A stretch of 64,000 nt of DNA from Candidatus Culexmicrobium cathedralense (GTDB lineage: Archaea; Thermoproteota; Methanomethylicia; Culexarchaeales; Culexmicrobiaceae). Under the pieces are notes generated by a model. That model ran no database searches. It saw only the letters and a list, made by a program, of their open reading frames with translations, and was not told the origin of the DNA. Positions 12,905-39,872 of this stretch are shown here, one piece after another (position 1 is the first letter of the stretch; each line of letters opens with the position of its first letter). The DNA is taken from positions 1 to 64,000 of the forward strand of contig JANZKC010000001.1 in assembly GCA_025061115.1 (NCBI GenBank). The letters run 5' to 3'. The translations under genes were made by a program, and so were the position numbers.

Positions 12905-12905
12905 T

Positions 12906-14659: not shown

Positions 14660-14660
14660 G

Positions 14661-15383: not shown

Positions 15384-15402
15384 ATATATGATTTTTACCT
15401 TT

Positions 15403-18359: not shown

Positions 18360-18364
18360 GTTTA

Positions 18365-23500: not shown

Positions 23501-24495
23501 CCTAATGAGGAATGCTCACCTCTCAGCCTCCATAGATGTTTAATAAGTTCTTTAGCTCTCTTAACATAAGTTTCGATGAGGCTTTGCTCTACGATTCCAT
23601 GTTCATTAATTCTATTCAATGAATTTAGGATTTTATATAATATGTATAATGCTTTATCCGTTGAGATATGCATTGAAACATATTTAAAGTGGGGTATGAG
23701 AGTTTGCTTGTCTACTTCAACAATTATTTCATCAATCATCCTTTCTATTTTACGCTTTACATTTTCGTCCTTGACTTCCTCAAGCTTTTTAATGTATTCT
23801 TGATATGGTATAATTATAATAGTGTCTGGATCAAGAACTATCTGAAAGGACCATTCAATTGGAGGAAAGTATCCTCCGAAATCGTTTTCCAGTTTTTTAT
23901 AATATGTTGGGTCAAACTCATATTGTTTCGGTTTTTTAACGTCTTTTACTAATGCTGCCCCAACAACTAGATACCTATGTCTGTCACCATTGACAGGGTT
24001 GCTATAATTGAGGTAGAAAAAGACCACCGATTTGCCAGGAACTATATACGATAAGTAATGATTAAGTCTATCTTCAAGGTCACGTGGGTATTTAAGTAGC
24101 CCATCTCGTGAGAAAGAAAACTTGAAACACCATGAAAGAATGGCATAAGGTTCTATGGTATCTTCTATGGGTTTAATACCTCCTTGTTTAGCTTCTTCGG
24201 TAAAATCGCAAAATGGGTGTATATGCTTTACCCTTAGCTTCTTATCTGCTAATAAATTTATCACCCAATAGCATGGTGGAACATAGTTCTCCCTCTCTAT
24301 TATTTCACTAGCATCTTTGCCTGAATACTGTTCCTCTAAATTGCCAATTTTTCTTCTCTGAATTCTAGTGGAAAGTAATGAATAGTTCCCTGAACAAAAA
24401 ATGTTTTCAGAAGGCCTTCTACAAACCTTACCAGTCCAGCAACTATCATGCCAAGCTAGACGAACCGTGAGATGAAGAACCAATAATTCACCCAC
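20551..24495 (-). CDS. RecD-like SF1B helicase with long N-terminal domain and C-terminal PD-(D/E)XK/Vsr-like nuclease
   Basis: GGAGTGKT, TIHRLL, IIDEASMV, GDSNQLPPIG, YAVTVHKAQGS, YTALTRA; C-terminal RSKIE...PDF...IEHLG. Confidence 0.85.
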   Translation of the reverse strand: MGELLVLHLTVRLAWHDSCWTGKVCRRPSENIFCSGNYSLLSTRIQRRKIGNLEEQYSGKDASEIIERENYVPPCYWVINLLADKKLRVKHIHPFCDFTEEAKQGGIKPIEDTIEPYAILSWCFKFSFSRDGLLKYPRDLEDRLNHYLSYIVPGKSVVFFYLNYSNPVNGDRHRYLVVGAALVKDVKKPKQYEFDPTYYKKLENDFGGYFPPIEWSFQIVLDPDTIIIIPYQEYIKKLEEVKDENVKRKIERMIDEIIVEVDKQTLIPHFKYVSMHISTDKALYILYKILNSLNRINEHGIVEQSLIETYVKRAKELIKHLWRLRGEHSSLGKLLIALGVNRGIFSISPGKEKSLHNLGYKKYKEIEEKIRKFLGQYGERLIEIIKTRDLNGLENLLNNIHPDSTMDSYCISLLREILHLAKSRGKIYFKLLELLSRLDLTYIQILNIIRAVENKQMNVRDIVDNPYSLIYSYIPQYELQEREWFVEFMDFNIDLYLLDIPLIPDPDYSELLWLSLPKALDRLIAVIYETLYNKAVFDGVTAVREEDLIEAINENQVLKLYHGTMPEISKADIEDIMVNRREALSNIIHCVVDPIEGRIFQLKHIREIERTIEDFIKKMLKKSFLVSSSNINYHIESVFKSLCEKMSCLNISKNQKEDFLSTQKDIYYKAVKHGLLVITGGAGTGKTETIVNLVDLYSRIGRKPILIVTPTGKSSLVIEERLKSRGLLRNVDMVSTIHRLLYSYHFEKFLGLRGEYIQLVDLIDKTFNDIRFFSVFKNYIAKNSGLKINPRVLIIDEASMVDEVLLALLLSIVNIHNLEHLIIVGDSNQLPPIGFGKPFVDIIDFLNEKHGELVITLETPIRFPVKTGIWAFSQAFTSTDNPIDDPKNYVDDTLKIECFIDKEDLKGMVKNILKEILDKSNTVSIDEYGLLELFNNILGFGSADGPQLDKIQILTPTRYGELGSEYINKILILDSKNIQDYNYVKIINERNRYVNLKSYGRILLIPNGALGYWFREKAKFMETSEFLKRLWDYKGLAIKYLSKTRNKFEKRKYYGLIKHLQNDIDRIYELLKDIVYEIKGRYKEGDSYISPGYAVTVHKAQGSDFDYVIFILPRISSFITKELVYTALTRAKKKLYLLLNANLKDNVVPILQQIKMLSELDRRQTLLFNYRRFSGRIYSLKLKDGRTIYTRSKIEYMIAKTLDGLGIEFEYEPRDLEEHGIIPDFKVVMNGKVFYIEHLGLLDKEIYRGRWETKRRIYEKLGLLGHVITTSEPKEGNINIEYIIKKIIDDIKSGKLMETKTGFPSKHHYILTKL

Positions 24496-25008
24496 CTATT
24501 AGCAATTTTACTGTTCACTAGAAACTTTTTTAATATGTATATTTTTCTTACTTTCATCCTATTTAATGCAAGTCTCTAGTTTACTATCAAAGCCTAAAAT
24601 AAACTTGATTAGCTCATTTCCAATTCATTTTAAATTTTGATTTCTTTTTTTAATACAATAGCAATTTATATTAATGCACATCGTCAATTTTGAGCTATTA
24701 GTTTAGGATGATTTACTAAAAGTATTAAAACTATTGTGAATACTTAGAAACCCACGTGAAATTGCCCACATTGAGATTCTTCTCGATGTGCATCAAGATG
24801 TCATTAGTGCTTTTAAGCATGAAACTGATGCTAGATTAGTATTACTAGCTGTGTTTTTCACGAAAATTTGGTTTAATTTGGTATTATGGAATTGCAGCTG
24901 CTAAGGCATTAATAACTGAGTTTAACTCTGTATTTCATTCTTTAGCACCTTAAATGTAGAAAAGTCTAATCAAGAGTTTAGTTATATTTTTATAATTCTA
25001 GTATTTTG

Positions 25009-25084
25009 AATTGTGCCCCGCCGCTGACACTCGACTTCATGGTTGGCTTTTTGCCTCTTTGTCGAGCTCTTACCAGCGGGGCTG
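25009..25084 (-). ncRNA. Box H/ACA guide RNA, copy 1
   Basis: Minus strand: GCCCCGCUG/CGGCGGGGC lower stem then ACA; GCUCGAC/GUCGAGU upper stem; pocket GUAAGA/GUCAG with top 14 nt from ACA; apical GA...UGA. Confidence 0.75.
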
Positions 25085-25099
25085 GGTTGAAGGTGATGA

Positions 25100-25120
25100 A
25101 TGTTAGTATTAAATTTAACT
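25100..25120 (-). promoter_or_regulatory. TATA box for H/ACA RNA copy 1 (also conserved in copy 2 at about 36765-36785)
   Basis: Minus-strand TTAAATTTAATA ends about 24 nt upstream of the hairpin 5' end in both copies. Confidence 0.55.
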
Positions 25121-25373
25121 TATTGGTTAGGTGTATTGACTTTTATCTTTATTTTTGTCTATGAATTTTGTACCAGTAGTTGTATTGATCTTGGGTTGTG
25201 AGATGGATTTGTATTGGTCATCTATGTTTTATGATTTCAATTTTGATTTGTTTAGTATGCTTTCCTTTATCATTTTTACTTGATAGAAGTAGTATAGTAG
25301 TTTTTCTTTGAACTTTTAAGGGATTTATCTTCACATGACCATGTGGTGTTGTGTGAAGATATTATGTTTAAGT

Positions 25374-25425
25374 TGATCCCTACTCTTATTGAGGAGGTGG
25401 GGGTTGTCCTCTCAAGCGAGGATCA
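25374..25425 (-). ncRNA. K-turn-like hairpin, copy 1 (degenerate)
   Basis: UGAUCC...CUU-GA-GAGGA-loop-UCCUC-AAU-AA-GAG...GGAUCA. Confidence 0.4.
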
Positions 25426-25586
25426 TCTGTTGAGTTTATTTTGTTAATGGATCTATTATTTTTGTTGTCCAGTAATAGCAAGAATCTTGATACTCTATTC
25501 ACCATTTCCATTGGATTTAAGTTTAATTACCTTAGGATAGTTAAATTAAAATTATTGGTTTTCTAGATTTTGTTGGGGTTTTAAGT

Positions 25587-25772
25587 TTGGATGATAATGA
25601 TAATATTTTCATGAGGATTCTTTTGTTGGCTTTAGCTAGAGAGTTGAAAGAGTTGGGGTTGGTTGATGTTTTTCCTGAAGAGTTCGAGTGGATTTTTGAA
25701 GAGTTGAAGAAGTATGGTGTTGATTTGGATAAAAATTTTAAACATCAGTATGCTAAAAGAAGAGAACGATAA
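25587..25772 (+). CDS. Small hypothetical protein
   Basis: 61-codon ORF with amphipathic protein-like sequence; no motif recognised. Confidence 0.4.
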   Translation: MDDNDNIFMRILLLALARELKELGLVDVFPEEFEWIFEELKKYGVDLDKNFKHQYAKRRER

Positions 25773-25779
25773 CAATACT

Positions 25780-26644
25780 TTAAATTATTTGTAGAATTTT
25801 TTCTGGTATTATTGCATTTGTTCCGCAGTAGGGGCATTTGATTATTTTTCTTGTTTCAAGGTTTGTGGGTTTAGGTTTGCTCCGCAGTTTGGGCATTTTA
25901 ATGTTATTACGCCATTTTTAAAGGTGAATTCTGAGATTATGTTGTATTGTATTCTTACTCCAGCTTTCGCTTGGAAGATTTGTTTCATGTATTCTCGTAT
26001 CATGTTTGCTGTTTCTTGTAGTTCTTTTTTGTATTTTTCTTCTAAACTTTTTAGTTCTTCAATGTATTTTTGTGTATTTAAATTTGTTCTGGATAGGAAT
26101 CTGAAAGCGCTTCTTCTTGATGTTCTCATCATGTTTTTGATGCTTAATATTTTTACGTATGTTTTGGCTAATTGCGATATCCTAGCAATTATCTCGGGTG
26201 GTAGATCTTCTCTGTTTATTTCGTATTTTACTAGTCTTGATAGGTCTTCAATTATATTTTGGATTACGATAATGTCTCCAAATCTTCAGGTAATGTTAAA
26301 CGTCCATTGTGACATATTTGCTCAATACATTTAGTTACTTTTTCTGGTGGTGTAACATCAAAAAATATTCCTAAGTCATCAATTTTAGCTACACCCAACT
26401 TCATGAGATTTTCATAATCTTTCTTCACTTCCTCTCTTGCATAATTCACACTCTTCCTGCTTAGAAATGCAACAAAGAAAATGTTCTTCCACAAATTATC
26501 TTCCTTAAGAGCTAAGCAGCGGATAGTCATAGACTTGTAAAAATTATTAACTAATTTCCAGAAATTACTTAAGTTTAGTTCCTTATTCATGGAGTAGATA
26601 CTAGTGTGAATCTTGAACATAAGAATCCCCCATATCGTCTTCAC
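25780..26644 (-). pseudogene. Frameshifted protein with C-terminal Zn ribbon
   Basis: Segments 26264-26644 and 25842-26270 lie in different frames; CPNCG and the out-of-frame CPYCG...LQII* are split by a further frameshift. Confidence 0.55.
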
Positions 26645-26805
26645 GTCAATTGAAACTCAGTTTTATAAATTTACCGATTTATTTCTCAATTTAACTCACT
26701 ATTAAGTTCAAGAGGATACTTCTCAAGAACTTACTTGTCTTAGAAATTAAAATAATGTAAATTAATGAAATAAATTGGGCTGTAAACCGTTACTCACTTA
26801 AGCAA

Positions 26806-27590
26806 GTGCAACTGCCTAATATGTACCGGTCACTGCCAGCTCAAACAATATTGTTGGAATACTCAATTCAACAGCCCTACCATAATTATGCGTATCCATT
26901 TGGAATAGAAGAGTATAGAATTGGTGATAAGGCTATTATTTATTCTAGAGTTATTAATGGTGAAATGCGCTATATAGGTAAGTTATCTGTGATAAAAAGA
27001 AGTCCTGCATACATTTATGAAGAAGATGGGCTTGGCTTTGAAAATATTTTCCATCTTCCAATAACATACTACATAAACGAGCAAGGGACAGAAGATATTC
27101 CTAGAACTGATGAATTTCAAGCTATCATTAACGCGTTTCAAACATGGGAGAACGATACATATTCTTATGTAGACTTCACGTATGGTGGAACAACGAGTAA
27201 TTCACCAGATGTTTATGACGGAGTAAATGTAGTAGGTTGGATTCCTAATCACGATGGGCCTGGAGGCGTGCTAGCATATTGTGCAATATGGTATGATGGT
27301 ACACAAATAGTGGAAGCTGATATAGTATTTGATGATGCAGAAACTTGGTGCATTGGAAGTGACATAGATGTGCAAACAGTAGCAACCCATGAAGTTGGAC
27401 ACCTTATAGGATTGGATGATCTACACTTAATTGACAATCAATATCAAGTGATGTATTATATTTATACTGGAATAAAGTGGGATCTGAATTTAGGTGATGT
27501 TAGAGGCGTGAGGTATCTTTATCCAATAGTTTCGAGAAACGGTTGTAAACATAGTTTATCCATATGATGGTGAAACTGTTTCTGGAATTT
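26806..27590 (+). pseudogene. Matrixin-like (metzincin) metalloprotease, frameshifted and 3'-truncated
   Basis: HEVGHLIGLDD plus VMY Met-turn; after PIVSR the paralogous VVNIVYPYDGETVSGI continues in another frame and breaks off. Confidence 0.7.
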
Positions 27591-27846
27591 CAATTATCCT
27601 TGGATTTAACGTGTTTAGTTCAGCTTCTAGGAATGATTTAAACTCATTTTCAGGGTTAGGTTTACCGTAAGCGTATATAAGTGCATTAACTGTTAACCAG
27701 TAATCTACTGCCTTAATCTTCTCAATGCTTTGAGTTCGTATTGGTATGATGTGCATTAATGGTTGAGCTAAAATAGCTGCAATTAGCATTAGGCTCATGA
27801 AGTATGCACATAAGGTGTAGTTCATGACTCCTTCACCTTCAAGCAA
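27556..27846 (-). CDS. Membrane-anchored hypothetical protein of a pilin-like cluster (3' end probably truncated)
   Basis: N-terminal hydrophobic helix; last codons are the antisense of the matrixin tail. Confidence 0.45.
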   Translation of the reverse strand: MLEGEGVMNYTLCAYFMSLMLIAAILAQPLMHIIPIRTQSIEKIKAVDYWLTVNALIYAYGKPNPENEFKSFLEAELNTLNPRIIEIPETVSPSYG

Positions 27847-28199
27847 ACTATTAATGGTTTAATGGTTCCATTAACTCCGGCCAACATTACTATTGTAGCT
27901 ACACCTTCAACTTCAAATCCGACACTCAAGAGCTTAGTACCATTAGAACTGTAGATTGTGAAGTTGTATGGGGTCATTCCTAAATGTGCATTCAATAATG
28001 CTCTAAGCTTAGATGAATCCAAACTGTAAACTGCATGAACAAGTTCATCCTTACTCAATAAGACGCCTAGAATATCGTCGGGAGCCTCATACCTTATCAT
28101 TGTGTGTATTTGATTGATCATTAGTAGGCTGATTAAAGCAGTCAATATTAGTGCTGTTGCTGCAATAGCGTCTAAAGTGTAAATTTGACCTTTCATCAC
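27822..28199 (-). CDS. Class III signal peptide (pilin-like) protein
   Basis: MMKG|QIYTLDAIAA followed by a hydrophobic helix. Confidence 0.65.
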   Translation of the reverse strand: MMKGQIYTLDAIAATALILTALISLLMINQIHTMIRYEAPDDILGVLLSKDELVHAVYSLDSSKLRALLNAHLGMTPYNFTIYSSNGTKLLSVGFEVEGVATIVMLAGVNGTIKPLIVCLKVKES

Positions 28200-28765
28200 C
28201 TACCACCCAAGAGAATAGTTTCGTTGACAACCATCAACCTCTTAAAGTTGAAAGTGAATTTACCCAATTCAACTGGATTTACCTCAACTACTAGGCCGCC
28301 ATCAACATGAACATAAGGATGCTCAACAGGTTTACTATATACTCCGTGTGATGTAATGTAGCCTTTAATGTTTCCTGGAGGTTCACCATAAAACTTTACT
28401 GATGAACCTGAGAATGCAACAATGAATTGGTAGTAATCAACTTTTAGTGGAGTATAGCCCGTAACAATATTGCAGGATCCATCACCATTAAAGCACATGA
28501 CAGTAACTCTAACAGTTAATTTCTCAACACAATCAACTGCAAGGTACTTACCTTCACGATAAATCGTCAAGTGTACTGGGTAAGCGTAGGTTTTAGGCTC
28601 TATTGGTGCTAGTGGTTGTGGGTGTCCTAAACTCGAAGATAAAATCCACATCGACAAGACCAGTGCTGACGAAAATACTAGAAAACCAGTTAGAAAGTCG
28701 AGCGTCAGCTCCATGAGGTTAATGCTATAGTACTTAAATATCTGCAATATAGTAGCAAATTTCAA
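28196..28765 (-). CDS. Pilin-cluster membrane-anchored protein
   Basis: MELTLDFLTGFLVF hydrophobic N-terminus resembling its neighbour; 4-nt overlap with the next gene. Confidence 0.5.
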   Translation of the reverse strand: MKFATILQIFKYYSINLMELTLDFLTGFLVFSSALVLSMWILSSSLGHPQPLAPIEPKTYAYPVHLTIYREGKYLAVDCVEKLTVRVTVMCFNGDGSCNIVTGYTPLKVDYYQFIVAFSGSSVKFYGEPPGNIKGYITSHGVYSKPVEHPYVHVDGGLVVEVNPVELGKFTFNFKRLMVVNETILLGGR

Positions 28766-28873
28766 TCATCAATTATCAGATTCTCAATTTATTAAGTAGA
28801 TTATCATAGGTTTTACAGTATGCTTGGTTCATTAGAAGCTAATCAATTCAATATAAGTACCTTGGAATTGGCA

Positions 28874-29521
28874 TTATTGATTTAATTTATGTTCTTGTGC
28901 TAATCTCTTTAATGCTGTTTCTACTGTAACTCCAATCTTTAACTCTCTACTAATATGATACCTTAAAACTCCTTCAGGGTTATGAGGATACTTAACTCTA
29001 TAAATTTTAAGTAAATCCCTATACATTCTACTCAATTCATCACTCATCTCTATCTGCTTAAATACATCAACCTTTTCCCTTCGCTCTACAATTTTAGGTG
29101 GACTATATAGATTCCACAATCCGAGTATAACTCCAACAGAGCTCAAATTAAATGGAGGTAGAAATAAGAGCATTAAATTAAGTCCCAATAATAGTTCAAT
29201 TAAATTTAATTTCAAATATAATGATGCATATAACATTGGATATGCAATATACAGTATTGATAATATTGTAATTAATTTCTTAATTTTCAACTTAAATTGA
29301 TTAATACTTCTAAGGTTAATGTAAATTCCAATCATACAAATTAAAACCAGCATATAAGCAATAATGTAATAAAAGTACCATAAAACTCCTAATTGAGCAC
29401 CCCTCACAACATCCACTATACTCCTAAATGGTACATGACTTGGAAGAACGATAACACCCCATGAAAAAGCAAAAATAGCACTACCTTCACTAAAGAAAAT
29501 CAATTGAGGAAGCATCATCAA
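28874..29521 (-). CDS. Hypothetical multi-pass membrane protein
   Basis: 3-4 TM segments plus a charged C-terminal domain. Confidence 0.6.
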   Translation of the reverse strand: MMMLPQLIFFSEGSAIFAFSWGVIVLPSHVPFRSIVDVVRGAQLGVLWYFYYIIAYMLVLICMIGIYINLRSINQFKLKIKKLITILSILYIAYPMLYASLYLKLNLIELLLGLNLMLLFLPPFNLSSVGVILGLWNLYSPPKIVERREKVDVFKQIEMSDELSRMYRDLLKIYRVKYPHNPEGVLRYHISRELKIGVTVETALKRLAQEHKLNQ

Positions 29522-29585
29522 ACTTAGAATAAAAATGATATATGACCTACTTAAATAGTCACTTGAAAAAAGATGAGAAAAGACT

Positions 29586-30116
29586 TTAATAATTCGTCAC
29601 CCCCGGTTCATCCCACGCATACTTATGCCATGCTGCAATAATATCTCCATAATCTTTGGGCCACCAATATTTTGAGAAATCATTCCAATATACATGTGCT
29701 CCCTCCCAATTAGTTATTCTACAATACACTTTACCATTAAATGTATCCTCATATTCACATGGCTCACTATCCCAAACATAAATCTCCTGATGTCTAGGAT
29801 CATTGTATTCAATTATTTCTCCATCTCCAGACCAAGTTAATTCCCAAGGAATGATTCTGTTGATATTTGCTGCATGTGACTCGCATGCAATGAAAACTCT
29901 AACATGAGTACCATCTTTCTCCTTAGCATCCTCCCATGAATGACTGTATAGACCTCCATGAGCACCAGTTTTAAGTAAAACGACTTTAGATGTATTATAC
30001 TGATCCACAAATACTACTAGATGCAATTCCCAATCATGAGGGTGTGCCGTAATGTGAGAGCTATATACGTAGTAATATTCGATGCCATAGGCGTGGAGAA
30101 GTATATTCTTGAATTC
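29586..30116 (-). pseudogene. 5'-disrupted NPP1/Vps62-like protein
   Basis: Open frame upstream of the TTG reads IEYYYVY...HPHDWELHLVVF, then GAHGG, GTHVRVFIACESHA; no in-frame start before HDWE. Confidence 0.5.
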
Positions 30117-30382
30117 TTAAACAGGTTATCGAGGGAGAAATATATTCTACACAATAAGTATGGGTCCTGGAATTTAGCATTCTTCGCTAAAGTCACGCTA
30201 GCTAGGAGAAGAAAGCATAGCAGCCTCAAATAATACGGTCATCGATTCAACCGTTGAGGAACCATTGAAAACCTCTATCTGTACTAATTTTATTGGAAAA
30301 TATTGAATCGCAGCCTTTTAGTGAAAACAGTAAACCCTTATCCACTAAGACTTAACAAATAAAGCACTTTAGATTCAAGCTC

Positions 30383-30967
30383 TTAGGCAAAACTCCTCGA
30401 CCAGACAAGTAGTGCCAATTCGGCCAGTCTCGAGGCATGTTTCTCAGCATCCGTAAAAGCCCTTGTATCGCTGAGTATCTCACCGTAGTCAAATGCAATA
30501 CCCATGACCCCCCTGTCACCTATGATCATCCTATGCTTCAACCCCCAGTTATGTATGCATGTGAGAGCCGAGTCTAGACCGTAGCCTCTTCCAACAACTA
30601 TTGATCCAAGCACCTTATTCTTCAACCTACCCCTAATACACCACGTACGATCCATGAATATCTTAGTTAACGTTGAAACATTATCGAAGTTCACGGGCGA
30701 AGCAACAACGATCACGTGAGCCTCTAAGAGCAAGGGTATAATCTTCCCAGTCATATCATCATCTATGCAACAACACCCGGACTCCAAGCACTTCCTACAA
30801 CTATAACATGGCTTAACCACGTACTCCCTAAGCCTAACTTTCACACAAGAGAAACCCCCGTCTCCCAATTTGTCCAGTACGCGGTCGAGGAGAATCTCAG
30901 TATTACTCCTAGTCCTCGGACTACCGAGAACACCCACAACTCTCAAGGAATTCGAACCTCTAACCAT
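30383..30967 (-). CDS. Iron-sulfur flavoprotein / NAD(P)H-dependent FMN reductase (flavodoxin family)
   Basis: GSPRTRSNT, CYSCRKC...C, ASPV; GGTGAGG RBS before the ATG at 30967. Confidence 0.9.
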   Translation of the reverse strand: MVRGSNSLRVVGVLGSPRTRSNTEILLDRVLDKLGDGGFSCVKVRLREYVVKPCYSCRKCLESGCCCIDDDMTGKIIPLLLEAHVIVVASPVNFDNVSTLTKIFMDRTWCIRGRLKNKVLGSIVVGRGYGLDSALTCIHNWGLKHRMIIGDRGVMGIAFDYGEILSDTRAFTDAEKHASRLAELALLVWSRSFA

Positions 30968-31288
30968 GAAAACCTCACCCTCACAAACTCGAACACACAC
31001 TCAAATTTAAAATAATTTGTTTAAGACATTGGGTAATCTTCCTTTCCTAAAATCTCTATTAATTATTCTTTTTTCCAAGGTTTCAGCATTTTCAAGGGGT
31101 TGCTCTGTAATAACCATAACACTACATGATAAATGCTACTGGGGAAGTTTTCTTATTAGAAAACTTCTCATTAAATTTTTACCATAACAGTTGTCATAAC
31201 CTTTACAATTAATTATTTCTCTATAAATTTTTTCAGGATTTAATACAGTCAAACATATCACAAAGGTATATTTTACTTTAATTTATAT

Positions 31289-31516
31289 TTAAAATTTATT
31301 TTTTAAAGAAAAAGAATTAAGGAAATTTACCGTCAACTCTAATGGTGAATCCAGCTTAGAGCCGTCAGCTTCAATAACTTTAACAGTTAAACTGGTGATA
31401 TCAACTGTACCTACATTTTTCAGTGTTATTTCTGCTCTACCAGTATCAACTGCAGCTCTAAAACCCCAAGTATAAATTGCAACACCAACACCAATCACTA
31501 GTCCTAAAGCTAGCAC
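31289..31516 (-). pseudogene. Archaeal pilin/flagellin-like fragment
   Basis: Hydrophobic helix + IYTWG, then ITLKNVGTVDITSLTV; signal peptide and C-terminus missing. Confidence 0.45.
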
Positions 31517-31716
31517 TATCGCAGATTATTTTTGCGAGATTCTTCATAAGTTAAGAGGTTGGGATGGTGGCTAGCGGTATGTTGAAATTGCTTTGTCCTC
31601 ATAGTAATTTTACAGATGATGATTTGAAAATATGCATAGAAACACCATAGCGGTTGTTATTCAGGAGCAGATTCCTTATGGATCTTAAGTATTATTAATT
31701 CAAGTTGTCCATTAAA

Positions 31717-33765
31717 TTAATTTGCTGAGGCATTATTAACTATTCTACCCATGATTTTTTTCCAGGTGTATATTGATTTTTTGTCATAGCAGTATTCTAT
31801 GAATTTGTATAGTAGTGTTCCTTTGGCTTTAGTTGTTATTGCTTTACCGTTTCCTAGTACTATTAGTTTGCTTCTTGCTCTTGTGAATGCTACGTTTAGT
31901 CTATGTGGGTCTGTTGGGAATTTTAGTTTGGTTGTGTCTGTGACGCTGAGTATTATGACTTCTTTTTCTCTTCCTTGAAATGCATCCACAGTATTTACTT
32001 CAATTAACTCTTTACCTTTATCTTTAGATAGCTTGTCTATGATTAGTTTTCTTTGAGCTCTGAATGGACTTATGATTCCAATTTCTGATTTGCTTACTCC
32101 ACATCTAATTAGCTCTCTTACTATTTCAACAGCTACTTCAGCTTCTTTTTCATTTAACCTTGAATTATCAACTACTTGATCCACTCCATGAACATGAACA
32201 AATACTACTGGCTTCATACCATTAAGAAATTCATATTTGGGCTTAATTCTTAGATTTAGAACTTTGCTTGAGCACGATTTTGCTGCTTTAATCTTACCTT
32301 CATAAACATATTTTGCTGAGAATCCTATGATGTCCGGATTACTTCTATAGTGAATTTGAAGCCATAAATGTCTATGATCATACTTGTCTTTTAGTCCTGA
32401 AAATGCACTTAAACTTGTTCTCAACTTTAAATCCCTAACCGTCTTAAATATTGGTAATAGCTGTTTGTGGTCTCCAACTACTATCCACTTTTTACCTTTA
32501 ACCATCGCTAGCAGTGCTAGTGTTATTGATGCTTGACTTGCCTCGTCAATAATTACTGTGTCAAATTGAATACCTATGAGTGGGGGGAGCTGAGACTTAA
32601 TTAATGTTGATCCAATTATAGGGATTTCAAATATAAGTTCTTCACATTCCTTCCTTATCATTTGATTTCTAAGCTTAATTAACTCCCTTAACTCCATCTT
32701 GTAGTTACTGATTATTTGCTTTAATCTCCTCTTCTCATGAACGCTCTTAGATCTTCTTAGCTCTTTAATTAAATTCTCAATGGCCTTAGAGTAATCTTTC
32801 ACCTTCTTATCTATCTCTAAAATTTTTTGTCCGAGGCGCTGTCTAGCTTTATAACTTAGCAGATACTTTTTTATGTGTTCAAGAACTTTCTCTGGTCTAC
32901 CAACCCTTAATGTTTTTTCTAATGGAAGAATTTCTACTGCATTATCTACTGCTCTATTAGTGTGTGATGAAATTAGTATTTTCTCGCCTCTCTTCATTAA
33001 CTCATAAGCTATTTTTGCTATAACTCTAGTTTTACCAGTTCCTGGAGGACCAACAATCAATAACAGTTCATTATCGTTAAGAGCTAGTGCAGCCTCAACA
33101 GCTTTAATTTGAGAGAAATCTAGCTCAAAGGCATCCTTAACATCTCTTGTGTTTTCTAATTTATGGTATTTTAATGATGGTTGCTCAAGACTGTCTAAAA
33201 CTAGTTCTATAGCATTTGGGTTGAATATTTGTATAATTGCTCTTTCAACATCTTTTTCTCCCTTTATTTGTTTAATTAAGTCTAATTGAAGATCATAGCT
33301 AATTAATGGTTCATAATCAAAGATTGTTATTGGCATGTCTTCTTTAATTAAATTGCTTGAAGTTAGTACTATTAATGTGTCTGAGTATGAATCAATTACT
33401 GTTCCTAGATATTCTGGTATAATCTCACCTTTAACTTTCAAAATTATTCCTATAGGATCTCCAGCTTGAAATTTCATTGCATACTTTGTCTCTGTTGTAG
33501 CAACTCCGTGAGATACATCGATTACCCTAGCTTCATAAACTTCCTTAAATGCTTCTCTTTTAGCATACCTTCTTTCCTTGCGAATTATCTCTTCTAAATA
33601 ATTTAGATTACTTAGTGATATTGCTGGTACTAATTTCTCTGCTAATTCAATTTGCTTTTTAAATCCACAATAAATGCAGTAAAGATATAGCTCACCATCC
33701 GATCTGCGTAATCTTAACAATCCATCACATTTAGGACAGAAATTAATTATATTCATATACGCCAC
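31717..33765 (-). CDS. UPF1/SMUBP2/DNA2-NAM7-like SF1 helicase with N-terminal Zn ribbon
   Basis: FCPKC...CIYC; GPPGTGKT, HTNRAVDN, IIDEASQ, GDHKQLLP, TVDAFQGREKE, RLNVAFTRAR. Confidence 0.9.
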   Translation of the reverse strand: MAYMNIINFCPKCDGLLRLRRSDGELYLYCIYCGFKKQIELAEKLVPAISLSNLNYLEEIIRKERRYAKREAFKEVYEARVIDVSHGVATTETKYAMKFQAGDPIGIILKVKGEIIPEYLGTVIDSYSDTLIVLTSSNLIKEDMPITIFDYEPLISYDLQLDLIKQIKGEKDVERAIIQIFNPNAIELVLDSLEQPSLKYHKLENTRDVKDAFELDFSQIKAVEAALALNDNELLLIVGPPGTGKTRVIAKIAYELMKRGEKILISSHTNRAVDNAVEILPLEKTLRVGRPEKVLEHIKKYLLSYKARQRLGQKILEIDKKVKDYSKAIENLIKELRRSKSVHEKRRLKQIISNYKMELRELIKLRNQMIRKECEELIFEIPIIGSTLIKSQLPPLIGIQFDTVIIDEASQASITLALLAMVKGKKWIVVGDHKQLLPIFKTVRDLKLRTSLSAFSGLKDKYDHRHLWLQIHYRSNPDIIGFSAKYVYEGKIKAAKSCSSKVLNLRIKPKYEFLNGMKPVVFVHVHGVDQVVDNSRLNEKEAEVAVEIVRELIRCGVSKSEIGIISPFRAQRKLIIDKLSKDKGKELIEVNTVDAFQGREKEVIILSVTDTTKLKFPTDPHRLNVAFTRARSKLIVLGNGKAITTKAKGTLLYKFIEYCYDKKSIYTWKKIMGRIVNNASAN

Positions 33766-33767
33766 CG

Positions 33768-34229
33768 TTAAATACTTAATTTTAAATTGAATTTCTTTTC
33801 AAATGCTTCTTTAATTAAATTAAAGTCGTGATGTGAAACTTCACCAATACCATATCCATCAATGTAATTCTCTATTTTTATAAAGTGGGTTAGTATTGGC
33901 TCTAGTGAGAAGATTATTATTGAAAATTCAATTTTCCATGGAAATAGTACTTTATTCTCTTTAATTTCAGCTGGCCAGATAGGGGTTTGATCATCATAAT
34001 GCTTACTTTTAATTAGACCAATTGCATGAATTTCACCAGTTCCAGCTATTTGAAATGTAGCGGAATCAAATGGTTTAATTTGATTATATAACCTAATGAA
34101 AGCCCTCCAATTTCTCCTCTGCTTATCACCTGCTTCCCTATCCCAAAACCCCCATAACAATCTTTTATATGCAACTTCAATATTGTCAATATTCCTCGAT
34201 GAGAATAGCCAGACTTTCACATAATTCAA
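33768..34229 (-). CDS. EVE-domain protein
   Basis: WLF...N...LWGFW...IKPFD...FQI...IHAIG...TPIWP.E...FPWKIEF; stop lies 2 nt before the helicase ATG. Confidence 0.65.
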   Translation of the reverse strand: MNYVKVWLFSSRNIDNIEVAYKRLLWGFWDREAGDKQRRNWRAFIRLYNQIKPFDSATFQIAGTGEIHAIGLIKSKHYDDQTPIWPAEIKENKVLFPWKIEFSIIIFSLEPILTHFIKIENYIDGYGIGEVSHHDFNLIKEAFEKKFNLKLSI

Positions 34230-34532
34230 TTTCTAAATTGATAAAAATAAGTTTACTGTTTAATTATTATCTCTTTAATAAAGAGCAAGATTGAGCATAA
34301 CGATATGAAGCTGAGAGACTTGGCAAATTAAAGAGGTTACTTCATTGAATTAGAAGGACTGGCTTCTTGGATGATGCCTAATATTTATCCGCCTAGACTT
34401 AAAGTAACAAGCTAACCCCATCTAAGACTTTTGTTATGTTCATAATTCAATGTCGAATTTTTGTTTAGATATTTAAATGATTAGAAGAAAATTTAAAGAA
34501 AAACATATATATCATCGAATTAAAGTTTAGTT

Positions 34533-35129
34533 ATGATGTCTAGTCGAATTTATTATATTGAAAAAGCAATTATGATTCTACTGATATGCGTAGTAATTTT
34601 AGAGGTCTTATTAAGTGCCAATACTTTTGCTTACGAACTTCTAGGTGGGAGGTGGACTGATAGTGATGTAAAGGATCTTTCTTATCGTGTTAAGTCGGGG
34701 ATACCTTATGTAAGTGATATACGTGAAGTGTTTGCAGATGCAGCAGCATCTTGGGAAAACACTGTAGCTTATGGTGTTCCACATTTCTATGAAGTAAGTT
34801 CGGGAGAGAAGATAATTGTGAATGCATATTATGAGGAGTATGGTGCATTAGCATATGCTTATGCGGATCCAAGCCTTTACGCCTATCCTTACGAGTATGC
34901 ATATATTCATGTAAATACATATTACTTAGATGTAGCTTATTACTTGAGTTATGAGCATTTTCAAGGTGTATTGGCACATGAAATAGGTCATATTCTTGGC
35001 TTAGCTCATGAAACAGAGTACGGACCAATAGTTTTAATGTGGCCAACTGATGAATTCTACATTGAATGTGGCATATATGAACCAACACTAGATGAAATTT
35101 ATGGCGTAATGGATCTTTATGGGGGTTAA
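34533..35129 (+). CDS. Secreted matrixin-like metalloprotease
   Basis: Signal peptide; HEIGHILGLAH; LMWP Met-turn; LYG end. Confidence 0.85.
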   Translation: MMSSRIYYIEKAIMILLICVVILEVLLSANTFAYELLGGRWTDSDVKDLSYRVKSGIPYVSDIREVFADAAASWENTVAYGVPHFYEVSSGEKIIVNAYYEEYGALAYAYADPSLYAYPYEYAYIHVNTYYLDVAYYLSYEHFQGVLAHEIGHILGLAHETEYGPIVLMWPTDEFYIECGIYEPTLDEIYGVMDLYGG

Positions 35130-35132
35130 TGC

Positions 35133-35789
35133 ATGGTTAGATTTAAATACTTTATTATTTTGAGTGGTCTAATAGTGGCATTAATGGTCTCTATTGGATC
35201 ATACATTCCAAGAGTTGAGGAATCAGAAAACATTATGATTTATGACATCTCAAATCTAAATAACGTTAAAATCGTTAAAGCATATGCTATCTATCCAAGC
35301 ATCATGTATAAGTCATTGACTTATCAAAAACTTCTTAGTGAAAGAGATTTAATTGCTATTGTAGAAATAAGTTATCCAATAAAAACATACCATGTTATAG
35401 AAAAGAACTTCTACTTTACATTATATAAAGCTAAGGTAATTAAGGTGATAAAGGGACCTAAAAATATTAGTGAAATATATTTGTATCAGATAGGTGGCTA
35501 TAAACCGGAAAGAAATGTTTTCTGGACTCTTGAAGGTCTACCGGTATTTAAGCCGGGTGAAAAATGGCTATTATTTATGAAGAAAATGACTTATGAAATG
35601 AATGCCAAAATAAACTTACCGCCAAACACGTATCATGCTGGAGGTTTAGAAGCAATAAAAGTAATTAATGGGAGAGTTTATTCGATGGATAATTTTGAGA
35701 AAATAGCAGAAATTGTATTGCCAGAACAATTAAAAGTAAAGGGCATACAACTACAAGAGTTCATAAACAGCATTCTAACAAAACCATAA
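35133..35789 (+). CDS. Membrane-anchored partner protein of the protease
   Basis: N-terminal TM; V.KVIKG...Q.GG...PGEKWLLF pattern; 3 nt after the protease stop. Confidence 0.65.
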   Translation: MVRFKYFIILSGLIVALMVSIGSYIPRVEESENIMIYDISNLNNVKIVKAYAIYPSIMYKSLTYQKLLSERDLIAIVEISYPIKTYHVIEKNFYFTLYKAKVIKVIKGPKNISEIYLYQIGGYKPERNVFWTLEGLPVFKPGEKWLLFMKKMTYEMNAKINLPPNTYHAGGLEAIKVINGRVYSMDNFEKIAEIVLPEQLKVKGIQLQEFINSILTKP

Positions 35790-36027
35790 TTTAACTTTAA
35801 CAAATAAAAGTTATTTTCACCTCCATTAAATTGTATAATATTGATGTTGACTGCAAATGAAAAACTCGAACGAAGCTTTTATAATATATATATGCTGTTC
35901 CGGTGACTGCTATTGCTGCTCAGAGAGGATGGAAGTTAGAATTTGCAATTTTTTCTTTAAGATTTAAATTTTATTATAACTTAATTAATAATGAAAAATT
36001 GGAATAAATTGTGTTGGGTGATTTAGC

Positions 36028-36492
36028 GTGAGATTTGAGGGTCATGCTGGTTTGTCTTTGTTGATTGTTTCTGTTGTTTTGTTTATTTTTGATTTTAGAA
36101 ATTATGAATCCATTATAGCTGGTTTGCTTGTTGTTGGTTTTTCTAGTTTACCTGATTTGGATTTAAGTTGGGAAATCCCGCATAGAAGATATACCCATAA
36201 TATTTTGTTTGGATTTATTTCTGGATTAATTTTTGGTTTCTTATTTATGTACAGTGGTTTGAATTTTGTATTAGGTTTTGTAGGTGGTTTTGGTGGAACC
36301 ATATGCCACTTAATTGGCGATAGTTTTACTTTTATGAAGTTTAAGCCATTATGGCCTTTTAGTAATCTCGAAGTTGGTTTGGGCTTTTTTAAGTCAAGCG
36401 ATGTGAAAATTAATGAAGTATTTCTCACTATTGGAGCTCTATCTTTCGTTTTCCTTTATGTGATTAAGCTTGGTATTTTAAAATTTCCTTAA
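36028..36492 (+). CDS. Membrane-bound metal-dependent hydrolase (YdjM/DUF457-like)
   Basis: GH, LPDLD, HRRYTHN, HLIGD.FT, PLWPF. Confidence 0.85.
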   Translation: MRFEGHAGLSLLIVSVVLFIFDFRNYESIIAGLLVVGFSSLPDLDLSWEIPHRRYTHNILFGFISGLIFGFLFMYSGLNFVLGFVGGFGGTICHLIGDSFTFMKFKPLWPFSNLEVGLGFFKSSDVKINEVFLTIGALSFVFLYVIKLGILKFP

Positions 36493-36672
36493 CTATTATT
36501 AATTAATTCTTAAATATTTAATTTTTATATTGTTTAATTGAATTTTATATTAGATGTTTAGTTAGAATTGCTAAATCTTTTTTCTCTAGTGGTTGTTCTA
36601 CTTTTTCTGTTAGGGTTGTTCCGGTTGTTAGTGTTATTTCGATTGTTGTTGGCCATTTTGTTGGTTATTGTT

Positions 36673-36748
36673 AATTGTGCCCCGCCGCTGACACTCGACT
36701 TCATGGTTGGCTTTATGCCTCTTTGTCGAGCTCTTACCGGCGGGGCTG
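36673..36748 (-). ncRNA. Box H/ACA guide RNA, copy 2
   Basis: GCCCCGCCG-GUAAGA-GCUCGAC-AAAGA-GGC-AUAAA-GCC-AACCAUGAA-GUCGAGU-GUCAG-CGGCGGGGC-ACA. Confidence 0.75.
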
Positions 36749-36929
36749 GGTTAAAAGGTGGTGAATGTTAGTATTAAATTTAATTTATTGTGTTGAGGAT
36801 AAGTGAAATTAGTAGTAATTTGGGTTGTTTGATCTTGGGTTATAAAGTGGATTTGCATCAGTCATCTATGTTTTTATGATTTCAATTTTGATTTGTTTAC
36901 TTTGTTTTGTGAAGATATTATGTTTAGGT

Positions 36930-36976
36930 TGATCCCTCCTCTCATGGAGGATGGTTTTCCTCTCGAGCGAGGATCA
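36930..36976 (-). ncRNA. Canonical K-turn hairpin just downstream of vapC
   Basis: CUC-GA-GAGGA-AAACCA-UCCUC-CAU-GA-GAG closed by UGAUCC/GGAUCA. Confidence 0.55.
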
Positions 36977-36985
36977 TCTGTTTGT

Positions 36986-37417
36986 TTATTTTGTTAGTGG
37001 GTATATTATTTTTGTTGTCCAGTTTTCCATGATATTTGTTTTAGTGTTAGTAGTTCTTCGTCGTGGGTGTATATTATTGGGATTCTGTTTGCTATGTAGT
37101 TGGCTATTATTAGGGCGTCTCTTCCGTCGAGGCTGTGTTTTGCTGCTAGGTTTAGGGCTATGTTGCATATTCTTTTTGTGTGGTTGTAGAATTCTATGTA
37201 TGGGTGATGTAGTAACATTTGTAATCTTCTTTTGGCTTCGGATGGTATCCATTTTTGGCTGTATACGAGTATGTAGTATGTTTCGTGTATTACTGTTGGG
37301 TTGATTGCTATGCGGTTTTCTGGTGTTAGGTTAATAGGAGTGTTTTGAGTTTTTGTGTTCTGGATAGGCTGGGTCGAGAGCGTAGCATAGTATGTTAGTG
37401 TCTAGTCTTGTGATCAA
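36986..37417 (-). pseudogene. vapC: Frameshifted VapC (PIN) toxin
   Basis: MITRLDTNILCYALD...VIHE...DGRDALI...IYTHDEEL spread over several frames. Confidence 0.75.
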
Positions 37418-37655
37418 TTAGGTTGGCCTTCATATCGCTTTCATTTTTGATGGTGACCAGTTTTCCGGTTTTCCTGTTCTTGGTGGCTCTGATGTTATTA
37501 TTCTTTTGAATTCTTCTAGAAAGTTTATTGTTTTTCCTGGTTTTAGTATGTAGCCTCTTCTACTTTTCTAGGATGATGGAGTCTCCTATTTCTTCTCTTA
37601 CTTCTCTTGGGAGGTAGATTCGTCCTTTTGAATCTACTTTTAATTTGTACTGCAT
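37418..37655 (-). pseudogene. Disrupted AbrB/MazE-type antitoxin
   Basis: MQYKLKVDSKGRIYLPREVRE, followed by a frameshift and premature stops. Confidence 0.7.
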
Positions 37656-37923
37656 TTCCAACTAATATTTTTGGGATTTTCTTTATCTTTAGTCTTTCGT
37701 GATGGTGTTATTGTTGATTAAGTATGGTTAAACTATATGGACTGATTCGCTGGATTTTATTGGGGTTTAGGCTTTGGATGAAGTTGGAAAGTTTTTGAGA
37801 TGGAGCTTCGTGGTGGGGATTTTGTTTTAAAGTATTGTGGTGCATATACGTTGAGTTGGTTGTGTAGAAATTCTCCGTTTCAAAACTAGTTTTCTCTATT
37901 GATTTTATTATAGAATTGTTAAT

Positions 37924-38364
37924 TTATTGATTAGTTAGCCATGGACTTAAAATCCTATGTCCTTCATTTATTCCTCTTAATTTCTCTACAAGCTCTCTAT
38001 CAATAGTTAATAATTTTACGCCATATCTTTCCGCTAATGCTAGGAATAGTGCATCGTAAACTGTGACTTTAAGTTTTATTGATAGTTTTATGGCTTCCTG
38101 GATATAGTCGAGATCTCTGTGAGTTATGCATATGTTTTTCATGAATTCATGAAGTAATTCGAGATTCTTTAAGACGATATTGCTTGGCTGCTTAAATACC
38201 ATTATTCTCTTCCAAGCGGCATTACTTGTTTCTAGGAAAGCTAGTTCAGGTATGTGAATTTCAATATATCTTTTAACCTCTTTTTCACACCACTCACTAT
38301 AGTCCTCCGGGAAGAACAGTGCGAAGAGAGCTGAGCTGTCAATGACAATGCTTTTAATGCTCAC
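37924..38364 (-). CDS. vapC: VapC PIN-domain toxin
   Basis: IVIDSS, E, VTVYDALF, LLTID. Confidence 0.9.
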   Translation of the reverse strand: MSIKSIVIDSSALFALFFPEDYSEWCEKEVKRYIEIHIPELAFLETSNAAWKRIMVFKQPSNIVLKNLELLHEFMKNICITHRDLDYIQEAIKLSIKLKVTVYDALFLALAERYGVKLLTIDRELVEKLRGINEGHRILSPWLTNQ

Positions 38365-39363: not shown

Positions 39364-39861
39364 TTAATCAACTCCAATAACATAAATATTCTCTACTCCA
39401 TCTGGTTCTGATGGTATTTCATATTCATTTAATGCTATTACCCTTATATTATAATAAGTCCCGCTTGGTGATGTAGATGAATCCCAGTAACCAACCCATA
39501 ATCCTAGAGTTGAGTCATAAAACATTGATTGCCTGCCAGAATTGTAATTCGTATTATAGACATGATAATCCACTGAGCTTATGGTTATTGTAGATGTAAC
39601 TTCAGCTTGAATCTTCACAATTCCAGAAACAGTTTCACCATCGTATGGGTAGACTATATTTACAACCGGTCTTGATACTATTGGATAAAGATATATTACA
39701 CCTCTAATATCCCCTAAATTAAGGTCATGTTTTAATCCAGTATAGTGATAGTACATTACTTGATAATAATTATCATCCAAGTAAAGGTCCTTTAAACCTA
39801 TGACATGGCCTACTTCATGAGTAGCTGCAGTCTGTACATCATAGTCATTCCCATACTTCCC
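39364..39861 (-). pseudogene. C-terminal fragment of a matrixin-like protease with an Ig-like domain
   Basis: In-frame upstream YDVQTAATHEVGHVIGL is preceded by TAA with no start codon; paralogous to 27350-27590. Confidence 0.7.
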
Positions 39862-39872
39862 TTATCACCTTT

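Follow-up and report, generated by a model that had tools for sequence, protein, structure and literature searches.

Two hairpin elements within a defence island of the archaeon Candidatus Culexmicrobium cathedralense are most probably genuine, independently promoted single-hairpin box H/ACA guide RNAs for U2125 in helix 69 of 23S rRNA, which belong to a family spread across the phylum and are present in addition to a native homologue. The guide RNA is of an already known kind, the archaeal box H/ACA RNA; the location of the copies, their number and their difference from the core copy are unusual. The source genome is a 1.98-Mb archaeal MAG with 7.65% contamination, in which both island copies and the native homologue (three loci) lie on the same 843-kb contig. 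The window referred to below is the whole stretch of 64,000 nt that was analysed, and the coordinates of the features are collected in Table 1.

Table 1. Positions of the guide RNA genes, their parts and neighbouring features
Feature	Position	Strand	Basis or remark
H/ACA guide RNA gene, copy 1	25009..25084	-	sequence, fold, BLAST, Rfam, covariance models
Copy 1, lower stem	25082-25074 / 25023-25015	-	
Copy 1, 5' guide strand	25073-25068	-	
Copy 1, upper stem	25067-25061 / 25035-25029	-	
Copy 1, K-turn-like apex	25060-25036	-	
Copy 1, 3' guide strand	25028-25024	-	
Copy 1, ACA	25014-25012	-	
TATA-like box TTAAATTTAATA, copy 1	25107..25118	-	24 nt upstream of first stem base; read off sequence
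Repeat unit, copy 1	25002..25473	-	hairpin, promoter, spacer, last vapC-like codons; two match blocks
H/ACA guide RNA gene, copy 2	36673..36748	-	sequence, fold, BLAST, HgcG match (40 bits, E 1.1e-9)
Copy 2, lower stem	36746-36738 / 36687-36679	-	
Copy 2, 5' guide strand	36737-36732	-	
Copy 2, upper stem	36731-36725 / 36699-36693	-	
Copy 2, apex	36724-36700	-	
Copy 2, 3' guide strand	36692-36688	-	
Copy 2, ACA	36678-36676	-	
TATA-like box TTAAATTTAATA, copy 2	36772..36783	-	25 nt upstream of first stem base; read off sequence
Repeat unit, copy 2	36666..37023	-	hairpin, promoter, spacer, 3' end of vapC-like pseudogene
Decayed vapBC cassette	37006..37655	-	directly upstream of copy 2; frames and domain matches
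Amidohydrolase gene	46588-47760		orthologues in two relatives
Native homologue	contig C1:794793-794876	+	covariance model match, 30.5 bits

Anatomy and divergence of the two copies

A BLAST search of the entire 1.98-Mb genome finds exactly two places that match the element, with 100% and 97% identity. The minus strand folds at -33.6 kcal/mol (z -5.9) in copy 1 and at -35.8 kcal/mol (z -6.5) in copy 2, and 0 of 200 shuffled sequences are as stable. The plus-strand fold is plainly weaker for copy 1 (-29.5 kcal/mol, z -3.3) and nearly equal for copy 2 (-35.7 kcal/mol, z -5.5). H/ACA RNAs were recognised here by a lower stem of 7-9 bp followed directly by an ANA box, which is usually ACA. Both copies contain a 9-bp lower stem with ACA directly 3' of it, a pocket composed of the 5' strand GUAAGA and the 3' strand GUCAG, and a 7-bp upper stem whose first pair is G.U. 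The distance from the pocket-closing pair to ACA is 14 nt, made up of the 5-nt 3' strand and the 9 nt of the stem. The stem length, strand length and spacing all fit the 10/5/9 rules reported for H/ACA RNAs, in which the pocket-closing pair lies 14-16 nt from the ANA box (14-15 in productive folds) and the 3' loop strand has 5-6 nt (PMC4652768). The apex of both hairpins holds a K-turn-like ...GA...AUGA... region, which is not textbook and is the least canonical part of the molecule. Assignment by hand allows two registers. One has tandem G.A pairs followed by a C-stem of 3 bp, with a bulge of 6 nt, and the other places A.A at 2b.2n; in both, the GA stem comes to 10 layers (7 bp + A.A + 2) only if A.A is taken as a layer. 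The apical stem is also shorter than in homologues, and no T-rich terminator is found downstream of ACA at either copy. An earlier sequence-only reading of this DNA had placed two minus-strand elements of about 75 nt at these positions and described the same anatomy from lower stem to apex, and both the coordinates and the fold bear it out.

The copies differ at only 2 of 71 hairpin and ACA positions, namely a loop base (A/T) and a C/T change that converts a G-C pair to G.U on the minus strand only. Both changes, which the earlier reading had already pointed out and the copy alignment confirms, are structure-neutral and keep the pairing. The shared flank, by comparison, differs at 30 of 146 positions (20%; P = 1.5e-5), which argues for selection on the hairpin, although its high identity could partly reflect gene conversion instead. 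Similarity extends beyond the hairpin, with 25002-25254 matching 36666-36899 at 82% and 25347-25473 matching 36903-37023 at 87%, so that the repeat reaches across the promoter into the final codons of a vapC-like gene; the upstream spacer of copy 1 carries an insertion of about 90 nt relative to copy 2. In the upstream repeat block, HgcG is the only match to Rfam. The TATA-like box claimed at about 24 nt upstream of each copy is indeed present, and TTAAATTTAATA is identical in copy 1, copy 2 and the metagenome contig L095. In a strain-level metagenome contig, the copy-2 version of the hairpin sits at the copy-1 locus, and this contig departs from the present sequence some 100 nt downstream of copy 1.

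Predicted target in helix 69

Helix 69 of the genome's own 23S rRNA contains the predicted sequence CUGAC-UC-UCUUA, and the pocket has a single 5+5 Watson-Crick target in the own 16S and 23S rRNAs, which is 23S U2125 in helix 69, with U2125-C2126 left unpaired at the pocket top. Such a target would be available to a random pocket with a chance of 652/4^10 = 6.2e-4. Only two such 12-mers exist genome-wide, the second being antisense to an ORF, and 0 of 35 ARAGORN tRNAs score near the rRNA site. Of the 24 23S loci examined in relatives, 23 have an identical helix 69. In an alignment without gaps to an E. coli 23S rRNA, the target lies 4 nt 3' of the last helix-69 loop U, at what we take to be E. 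coli 1921 by standard numbering; it corresponds by alignment to one yeast helix-69 pseudouridine, psi2264, for which the guide is presumably snR3. The 1921 placement fits the position equivalences that a study of Sulfolobus islandicus lists in its Table 1 (PMC11077068). Both the helix-69 sequence and the target uridine named by the sequence-only reading are thus found in the host rRNA.

Genes for Cbf5, Nop10 and Gar1 are present in the genome. In the proposed mechanism, the K-turn-like apex of the transcript would be bound by L7Ae, and its lower stem and ACA by Cbf5-Nop10-Gar1. The 3' strand GUCAG would pair with CUGAC and the 5' strand UAAGA with UCUUA of helix 69, and with U2125-C2126 unpaired at the top of the pocket, Cbf5 would turn U2125 into pseudouridine.

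A phylum-wide family and its known relatives

A BLAST search of the element against 40 relatives recovers only its own two copies, so covariance models are needed to detect homologues. Searches with R1, a model made from the island copies, and with model R2 identify 37 homologues across the phylum; they are found in 9 of the 13 f5 family genomes, in 9 of 11 relatives from the own order together with the third locus of the own genome, and in 20 of 151 genomes of a phylum-wide sample. In the 37-sequence alignment, 90.1% of cells are paired versus 72.0% in shuffles, with 0 of 500 shuffles as high and slid controls at 35-53%; in 15 of the 19 pairs both partners vary, in an alignment that is itself fitted to the model. 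The ANA box is kept in all 37 homologues (ACA in 33, AAA in 3, AUA in 1) and the K-turn UGA in 34. The test by covariance and by conservation of ACA that had been proposed from the sequence therefore comes out in favour of the guide. When homologues outside the class are scored on the rRNA of the present genome rather than on their own, U2125 alone ranks first as target in 24 of the 37 members, including 3/3 of the island type, 12/12 of f5 and 9/12 of other families. The island-type pocket (GUCAG with xAAGA or xAGGA) also occurs in families f12 and f21, and the island copies share only 46-65% identity with every other lineage.

The best Rfam match is hairpin 3 of HgcG (RF00064), with 25.8 bits for copy 1 (E 1e-5) and 40 bits for copy 2 (E 1.1e-9); no family reaches its gathering threshold in the whole window, the HgcG cut-off of 77 bits being that of a three-hairpin model. 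The homologues appear to constitute a phylum-wide family of predicted helix-69 guides, related to Pab40/HgcG hairpin 3 and lacking an Rfam model of its own. Hairpin 3 of HgcG/Pab40 (Pf7, Afu4) resembles the island copies in its architecture, the G.U closing of the pocket and the 3' guide strand, UGU(U/C)A. Its substrate is likewise a helix-69 uridine, Pab40 motif 3 being reported to guide P. abyssi 23S U2016 in stem-loop 69 (PMC2377435). Judging from the Rfam consensus arms, motif 3 would act one register upstream, at the equivalent of E. coli 1915, whereas the island pocket would select the 1921 equivalent. In addition, Pab40 is a three-hairpin RNA, while the island guide consists of one hairpin with a promoter to itself and matches no part of the model but hairpin 3.

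Sulfolobus islandicus sR148 is likewise described as a Cbf5-dependent guide for crenarchaeal-type helix 69, with U2060 and U2066, the equivalents of E. coli 1917 and yeast 2266, as its targets (PMC11077068). According to the same report, the helix-69 pseudouridines of this organism lie at the 1917 and 1923 equivalents, and deletion of sR148 abolishes them (PMC11077068). Unlike the classic, bipartite island RNA, sR148 is presented there as atypical, without lower stem and ACA and with a single 3' guide (PMC11077068). The position selected by the island guide, the yeast 2264 equivalent, falls between the two sR148 sites. Four snoRNA-guided pseudouridines are reported in yeast helix 69 (PMC7991803). 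The yeast guides are eukaryotic two-hairpin H/ACA snoRNAs, in which Nhp2 replaces L7Ae, and the likeness noted here is that one of the four sites corresponds to the position predicted for the island guide.

The native homologue

The native homologue is an 84-nt hairpin, the second of the two in its RNA, and is syntenic across the order. It shares with the island copies the covariance family, the G.U closing pair, the K-turn motif as well as the ANA box, and its 5' arm likewise retains complementarity to the 3' strand of helix 69. Unlike the island copies, it possesses an extra outer stem that encloses ACA, and its 3' arm reads GAUCG in 10/10 sequences of the order instead of GUCAG. Because of this order-wide GAUCG arm, the native homologue no longer pairs canonically with helix 69 and does not rank U2125 first. 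U2121, with 2+6 bp, or U889, with the 3' arm only, are the best candidates, and no convincing bipartite site was found for the native homologue or for its upstream hairpin. Given the order-wide divergence of the native 3' arm, the island copies are the only canonical guide for U2125 in the genome.

Genomic setting and origin

PADLOC recognises defence genes around both copies, which substantiates the setting among defence genes originally read from the sequence. The cassette next to copy 2 comprises an AbrB/MazE-like fragment of 31 aa that runs into a stop (MazE_antitoxin, E 2e-5) and a PIN domain broken over two frames (PIN, E 2.7e-9), and no paralogue of the vapC-like pseudogene is found in the genome. 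GC content in the surrounding 12-46 kb is 0.29-0.43 per 1-kb window (mostly 0.30-0.37), compared with 0.39-0.46 for the contigs. The amidohydrolase gene has orthologues in relatives G002 and G006 at 92% and 85%, and the neighbours of these do not match the window. No integrase, transposase or recombinase is found among 64 ORFs (30 + 34) scanned with Pfam, eight short listed ORFs being left out. The strict pocket pattern has 0 matches in viral contigs and 0 in genome contigs, and in metagenomes it is found in 1 contig, a strain of the same locus. Within one genome, a core guide that has drifted stands beside two canonical copies, which are conserved and lie in a fluid defence island.

Two further signals were discarded. 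The loose pocket pattern matches 25 loci in viral contigs, 0/25 of which pass model R2, and these are attributed to chance. The A+C-rich minus strand around the copies is no special mark, as 604 of 19,710 windows of 500 nt genome-wide are equally skewed. Among the papers covered by a literature search, none joined an H/ACA guide RNA with a defence island, and there was nothing on point about horizontal transfer or duplication of archaeal H/ACA sRNAs among the matches listed.

The copies may have arrived by horizontal transfer or may be an old retained paralogue. A possible, if tentative, history that is compatible with the guide function is that the native guide lost its 3'-arm match and that a canonical guide of ancestral type was later gained from outside the class, together with vapBC, into the defence island, where it was duplicated. 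Model R1 matches 0/11 own-order genomes but does match f5 and families of other classes (best f12, 43 bits), and a tree places the island copies outside the own-class clade (split 92/86), with the native copies inside (100/100). The recurrence of the island-type pocket in f12 and f21 points in the same direction, as do the low GC and defence genes of the surroundings, the lack of synteny in G002 and G006, the departure of the strain-level contig just beyond copy 1 and the vapC-like pseudogene without paralogue. On the other hand, AU tests on an alignment of only 81 columns also allow a clade of the island copies with their own class (p 0.144) or with the native order clade (p 0.186). No donor can be named at 46-65% identity to all other lineages, the scanned ORFs include no integrase or transposase, and neither viral nor genome collections hold a near-identical copy.

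Other readings concern what the copies are. That they are non-functional relics of a former guide gene, passively copied by segmental duplication or recombination and deprived of expression or RNP assembly, seems quite improbable: the decay of the adjoining vapBC, the irregular K-turn and the short apical stem agree with such a fate, but the hairpin has diverged far less than its flank and only by pairing-preserving changes, its TATA-like box is identical in both copies, the hairpin is also retained in another strain, and every defining motif is intact. The direct repeats bracket 11.6 kb of accessory genes, and the strain-level breakpoint lies close to copy 1, as expected if a guide gene served as an attachment or recombination site in the way tRNA genes do and the intervening DNA were an inserted element. 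This is very unlikely, since the ORFs scanned, between the copies and beyond, include no integrase or recombinase, and the repeats are about 380 nt long at 82-87% rather than a short exact core, running into the 5' flank and the vapC end and stopping right after ACA. Hardly any likelihood remains for another structured element on either strand, such as a terminator, a REP/MITE-like repeat or a riboregulator, or for an H/ACA guide with a non-ribosomal target. The stable plus-strand fold of copy 2 could be cited for it; the genome, however, has two copies only, covariation and ANA conservation hold family-wide, and no tRNA scores near the rRNA site.

Implications for helix-69 modification

Helix 69 is the central bridge between the ribosomal subunits. 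Its pseudouridines in yeast are reported to affect fidelity and antibiotic sensitivity (PMC7991803). If the guide prediction is true, the family would add a helix-69 site at the 1921 equivalent, a position that does not figure among the archaeal sites in the literature examined. A bolder and rather unlikely interpretation regards an rRNA-modification guide as exchangeable accessory cargo, whereby the core helix-69 guide drifted and a canonical guide was regained from another class, in a defence island beside a toxin-antitoxin cassette, and duplicated. Were this so, helix-69 pseudouridylation would be strain-variable and possibly selected for altered sensitivity of the ribosome to toxins or viral factors. 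The contrast between core and island guides within one genome offers a concrete case for the turnover of guide RNAs and rRNA modifications, and bears on whether guides can move horizontally.

Anatomy of the two hairpins

A sequence-only reading had placed two box H/ACA guide-like elements on the minus strand of the window, and their positions and strand were borne out (island copies 1 and 2 in the table). When the whole assembly (1.98 Mb in 25 contigs; one of these, 843 kb long, begins with the 64 kb of the window) was searched by BLAST with copy 1, only two loci were returned, at 100% and 97% identity. The minus-strand RNAs fold at -33.6 kcal/mol (copy 1; z -5.9) and -35.8 kcal/mol (copy 2; z -6.5), values equalled by none of 200 shuffles; the plus-strand folds reach -29.5 (z -3.3) and -35.7 kcal/mol (z -5.5), respectively.

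Folding reproduced the architecture proposed earlier in every part: a 9-bp lower stem with ACA immediately 3', a bipartite guide pocket with GUAAGA on its 5' strand and GUCAG on its 3' strand, a 7-bp upper stem whose first pair is G.U, an apex containing ...GA...AUGA..., and 14 nt from the pocket-closing pair to ACA. Two of the 71 positions of hairpin plus ACA distinguish the copies, the same two as first noticed, namely one loop base and one C/T change that retains a G.U pair solely when the minus strand is the RNA. The TATA box expected about 24 nt upstream was read as a TATA-like TTAAATTTAATA, identical in both copies, 24 or 25 nt 5' of the first stem base. This anatomy agrees with the productive 10/5/9 fold as described by Toffano-Nioche et al. 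in PMC4652768 (lower stem of 7-9 bp, 14-15 nt to ANA, 10-layer GA stem), with the K-turn as the reservation: it has two possible registers, each giving 10 layers only when an A.A layer is counted.

Features bearing on the guide copies, their relatives and their surroundings
Feature	Location	Details
Island copy 1	window 25009-25084 (-)
Island copy 2	window 36673-36748 (-)
Second repeat hairpin	window 36915-36990 and 25359-25440 (-)	just past vapC stop; starts GAUGAUCC
Dense defence island	window 8198-24495 and 31717-34229	PADLOC matches
HerA ATPase and NurA-like pair	in defence island
Type II restriction-modification set		C5 methyltransferase, nicking endonuclease, 511-aa type II restriction enzyme
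PDC-S70 and PDC-M19A/DarG-like proteins	in defence island
PDC-S68 helicase	immediately downstream of copy 1	1314 aa; E 5e-250
MkoA-like helicase, then unassigned 153-aa protein	between copies
Strand-skewed stretches	window 24901-26300, 35801-38000, 39801-40700	0.5-6 kb
ABC-2 permease gene	window 39873-40625	intact; A+C-rich coding strand
M10 inverted repeat	window 27355-27589 / 39619-39851	77.5% identity
Third M10-like gene	window 34533-35129
Own 23S rRNA	C4:20379-23513	CUGAC-UC-UCUUA in helix 69
Native homologue (second hairpin)	C1:794793-794876
Native two-hairpin locus	C1:794680-794890	L033:1380-1600
tmRNA-model matches	L033:2376-2544, L025:2475-2644, L019:551-711	23-31 bits, sub-threshold
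Cbf5 gene	C2:254333-255303	two pieces
23S interruption, G023 (f5)	L058/L061, C1:522822-523715	~750 nt
Metagenome contig L095	window 24908-28018	98.9% identical; different gene at L095:1-198

Predicted target in 23S helix 69

When the pocket was paired with the host 23S rRNA, the helix-69 sequence that it had been predicted to select was present, and this is the sole site in the organism's 16S and 23S rRNAs that allows 5+5 pocket pairing with U-N unpaired; the probability that a 5+5 pocket of random sequence finds such a site is 652/4^10 = 6.2e-4. The target 12-mer has one further occurrence genome-wide, antisense to an ORF, and none of the 35 tRNAs detected by ARAGORN scored near the rRNA site. 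When an E. coli 23S rRNA was aligned without gaps, the target uridine (U2125) fell 4 nt downstream (3') of the final loop uridine of helix 69. In the standard numbering it corresponds to E. coli position 1921, the offset being counted from the positions of the three E. coli helix-69 pseudouridines. This numbering agrees with the equivalences in Table 1 of PMC11077068, where S. islandicus U2060 corresponds to E. coli 1917 and yeast 2260, and U2066 to yeast 2266.

A guide family across the phylum

At the Rfam gathering score the island elements had no match. Under an E-value threshold, the only sensible match was hairpin 3 of HgcG/Pab40, to which copy 1 scored 25.8 bits (E 1e-5) and copy 2 scored 40 bits (E 1.1e-9). 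Motif 3 of Pab40 is described in PMC2377435 as the guide for U2016 in stem-loop 69 of P. abyssi 23S rRNA, and the island hairpins are likewise predicted to guide in helix 69.

A covariance model built on the two island copies (R1) matched 9 of 13 genomes of f5, another family of the same class, and none of 11 relatives of the organism's own order; over the whole class, its matches were confined to f5, with 10 of the 32 f5 genomes hit and none of the 29 remaining ones. A wider search of 150 further genomes from the phylum gave matches in 19 (f5, f12, f18, f21, f24, f26, f30, f31 and f36). A second model (R2), built on 11 sequences, recovered an 84-nt homologue in nine of the 11 order relatives, together with a third locus in the organism's own genome (30.5 bits) that is 93% identical to the same-genus copy.

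In an alignment of 37 sequences, which was fitted to the model and thus somewhat favours the structure, 90.1% of cells were paired as opposed to 72.0% in shuffles, and 15 of 19 pairs carried changes on both sides; none of 500 shuffles reached the observed values, and sliding the partners lowered pairing to 35-53%. ANA is present in all 37 homologues (ACA in 33) and the K-turn UGA in 34. The covariance and box conservation sought as a check on the original proposal were both found. The guide family to which the island copies belong is widespread but uncatalogued, and is related to hairpin 3 of Pab40.

Comparison of 24 23S loci from relatives showed an identical helix 69 in 23 of them; the remaining one belongs to G023, an f5 genome with an insertion there. 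With the pockets scored on the present genome's rRNAs, which outside the class assumes the same helix 69, 24 of the 37 homologues have U2125 as their single best site (3/3 island-type, 12/12 from f5 and 9/12 from other families). Two sequences, L099 (G098, f24) and L107 (G070, f18), have U2127 as their best target, their 5' arms forming 7-8 bp in a register displaced by 2 nt; the U2127 site (equivalent to yeast 2266) is listed as modified in S. islandicus in PMC11077068. The insertion in G023 interrupts the 3' strand of helix 69 just 5' of UUAAGG; it probably represents an rRNA intron located exactly where the guide family pairs.

The native homologue

In the core genome, the homologue forms the second of two hairpins in one RNA. 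It differs from the island copies in this arrangement, in the extra outer stem that encloses each hairpin with its own ACA, and in its 3' arm. The outer stem reads GGAGCU...ACAGCUCC in the organism's own genome and GAAGCU...AGCUUC in the same-genus genome, and covaries between genera. All ten native sequences of the order are exceptional in having the 3' arm GAUCG, and the top-scoring site for them is either U2121 (2+6 bp; three f1 sequences) or U889 (3' arm only); therefore the island copies are the only canonical guides predicted for U2125 within this genome. The pocket of the native second hairpin is partly self-complementary.

The native locus is syntenic, since matches to the tmRNA model lie about 900 nt from it in three genomes of the order. 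These matches probably represent a conserved tRNA-like or intron-bearing tRNA gene.

Island setting and origin of the copies

The setting among defence genes remarked on in the sequence-only reading holds, as PADLOC recognises several such genes around the copies. Between 12 and 46 kb, GC content per 1-kb window is 0.29-0.43, with most windows at 0.30-0.37, compared with 0.39-0.46 in the contigs. Among 64 ORFs no integrase or transposase was found, which leaves a classic integrated element unsupported. In a tree of 81 columns, the island copies fall outside the own-class clade (split 92/86) and the native copies group within f5 as a clade with 100/100 support; in AU tests, neither a union of the island copies with their class (p 0.144) nor one with the native homologues (p 0.186) was rejected, and the other lineages all share just 46-65% identity with the island copies. 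Horizontal gain of the island copies would on these grounds be plausible but unproven.

Parts of the region are strand-skewed, with at least 64% G+T on one strand and A+C richness on the other; about 100 other such segments occur genome-wide (604 of 19,710 500-nt windows are equally skewed), and the stretches include intact genes. There is also an inverted repeat involving a gene for a matrixin-like (M10) protease, whose C-terminal portion recurs in truncated form joined to an Ig-like domain.

The repeat that holds the guide copies exceeds the hairpin: approximately 380 nt are common to both loci in two blocks (82% and 87% identity) that take in the promoter and the final codons of a vapC-like gene, and similarity ends immediately past ACA. 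At copy 2 a whole vapBC cassette is recognisable yet broken, with a 31-aa AbrB/MazE-like fragment closed by a stop codon and a PIN domain spread across two frames (Pfam PIN E 2.7e-9), while at copy 1 the vapC-like gene is reduced to its last six codons. The likely history is partial copying of a vapBC-guide module. The second conserved hairpin of the repeat folds at -19.9 and -18.6 kcal/mol (z -3.8 in both copies) and had no match in an Rfam scan.

Conservation and functional implications

In the shared flank, 30 of 146 aligned positions differ and 25 further columns are gaps, as against the two differences in the hairpin (P = 1.5e-5 were the flank rate to apply). Gene conversion could contribute to this inter-copy identity; family-wide conservation argues for function. 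In a strain-level 3.3-kb metagenome contig (L095), the hairpin at the copy-1 locus is of the copy-2 form; the contig diverges about 100 nt downstream, where a different gene replaces the PDC-S68 helicase, and this breakpoint marks a cassette boundary adjoining the guide gene.

Genes for the protein partners Cbf5, Nop10 and Gar1 are present. The Cbf5 match falls into two pieces in different frames, which share a few bases, and the first contains one TAA; this could reflect a frameshift or a cbf5 intron, which is known in crenarchaeal-type archaea.

The unique 5+5 target, the covariation and the conservation of ANA and UGA uphold the main interpretation put forward at the outset, an H/ACA guide directed at helix 69, and both elements are very probably functional copies of a classic archaeal guide of this kind. 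What is unusual is their duplication, their defence-island setting by a decayed toxin-antitoxin cassette, and their coexistence with a drifted core homologue.
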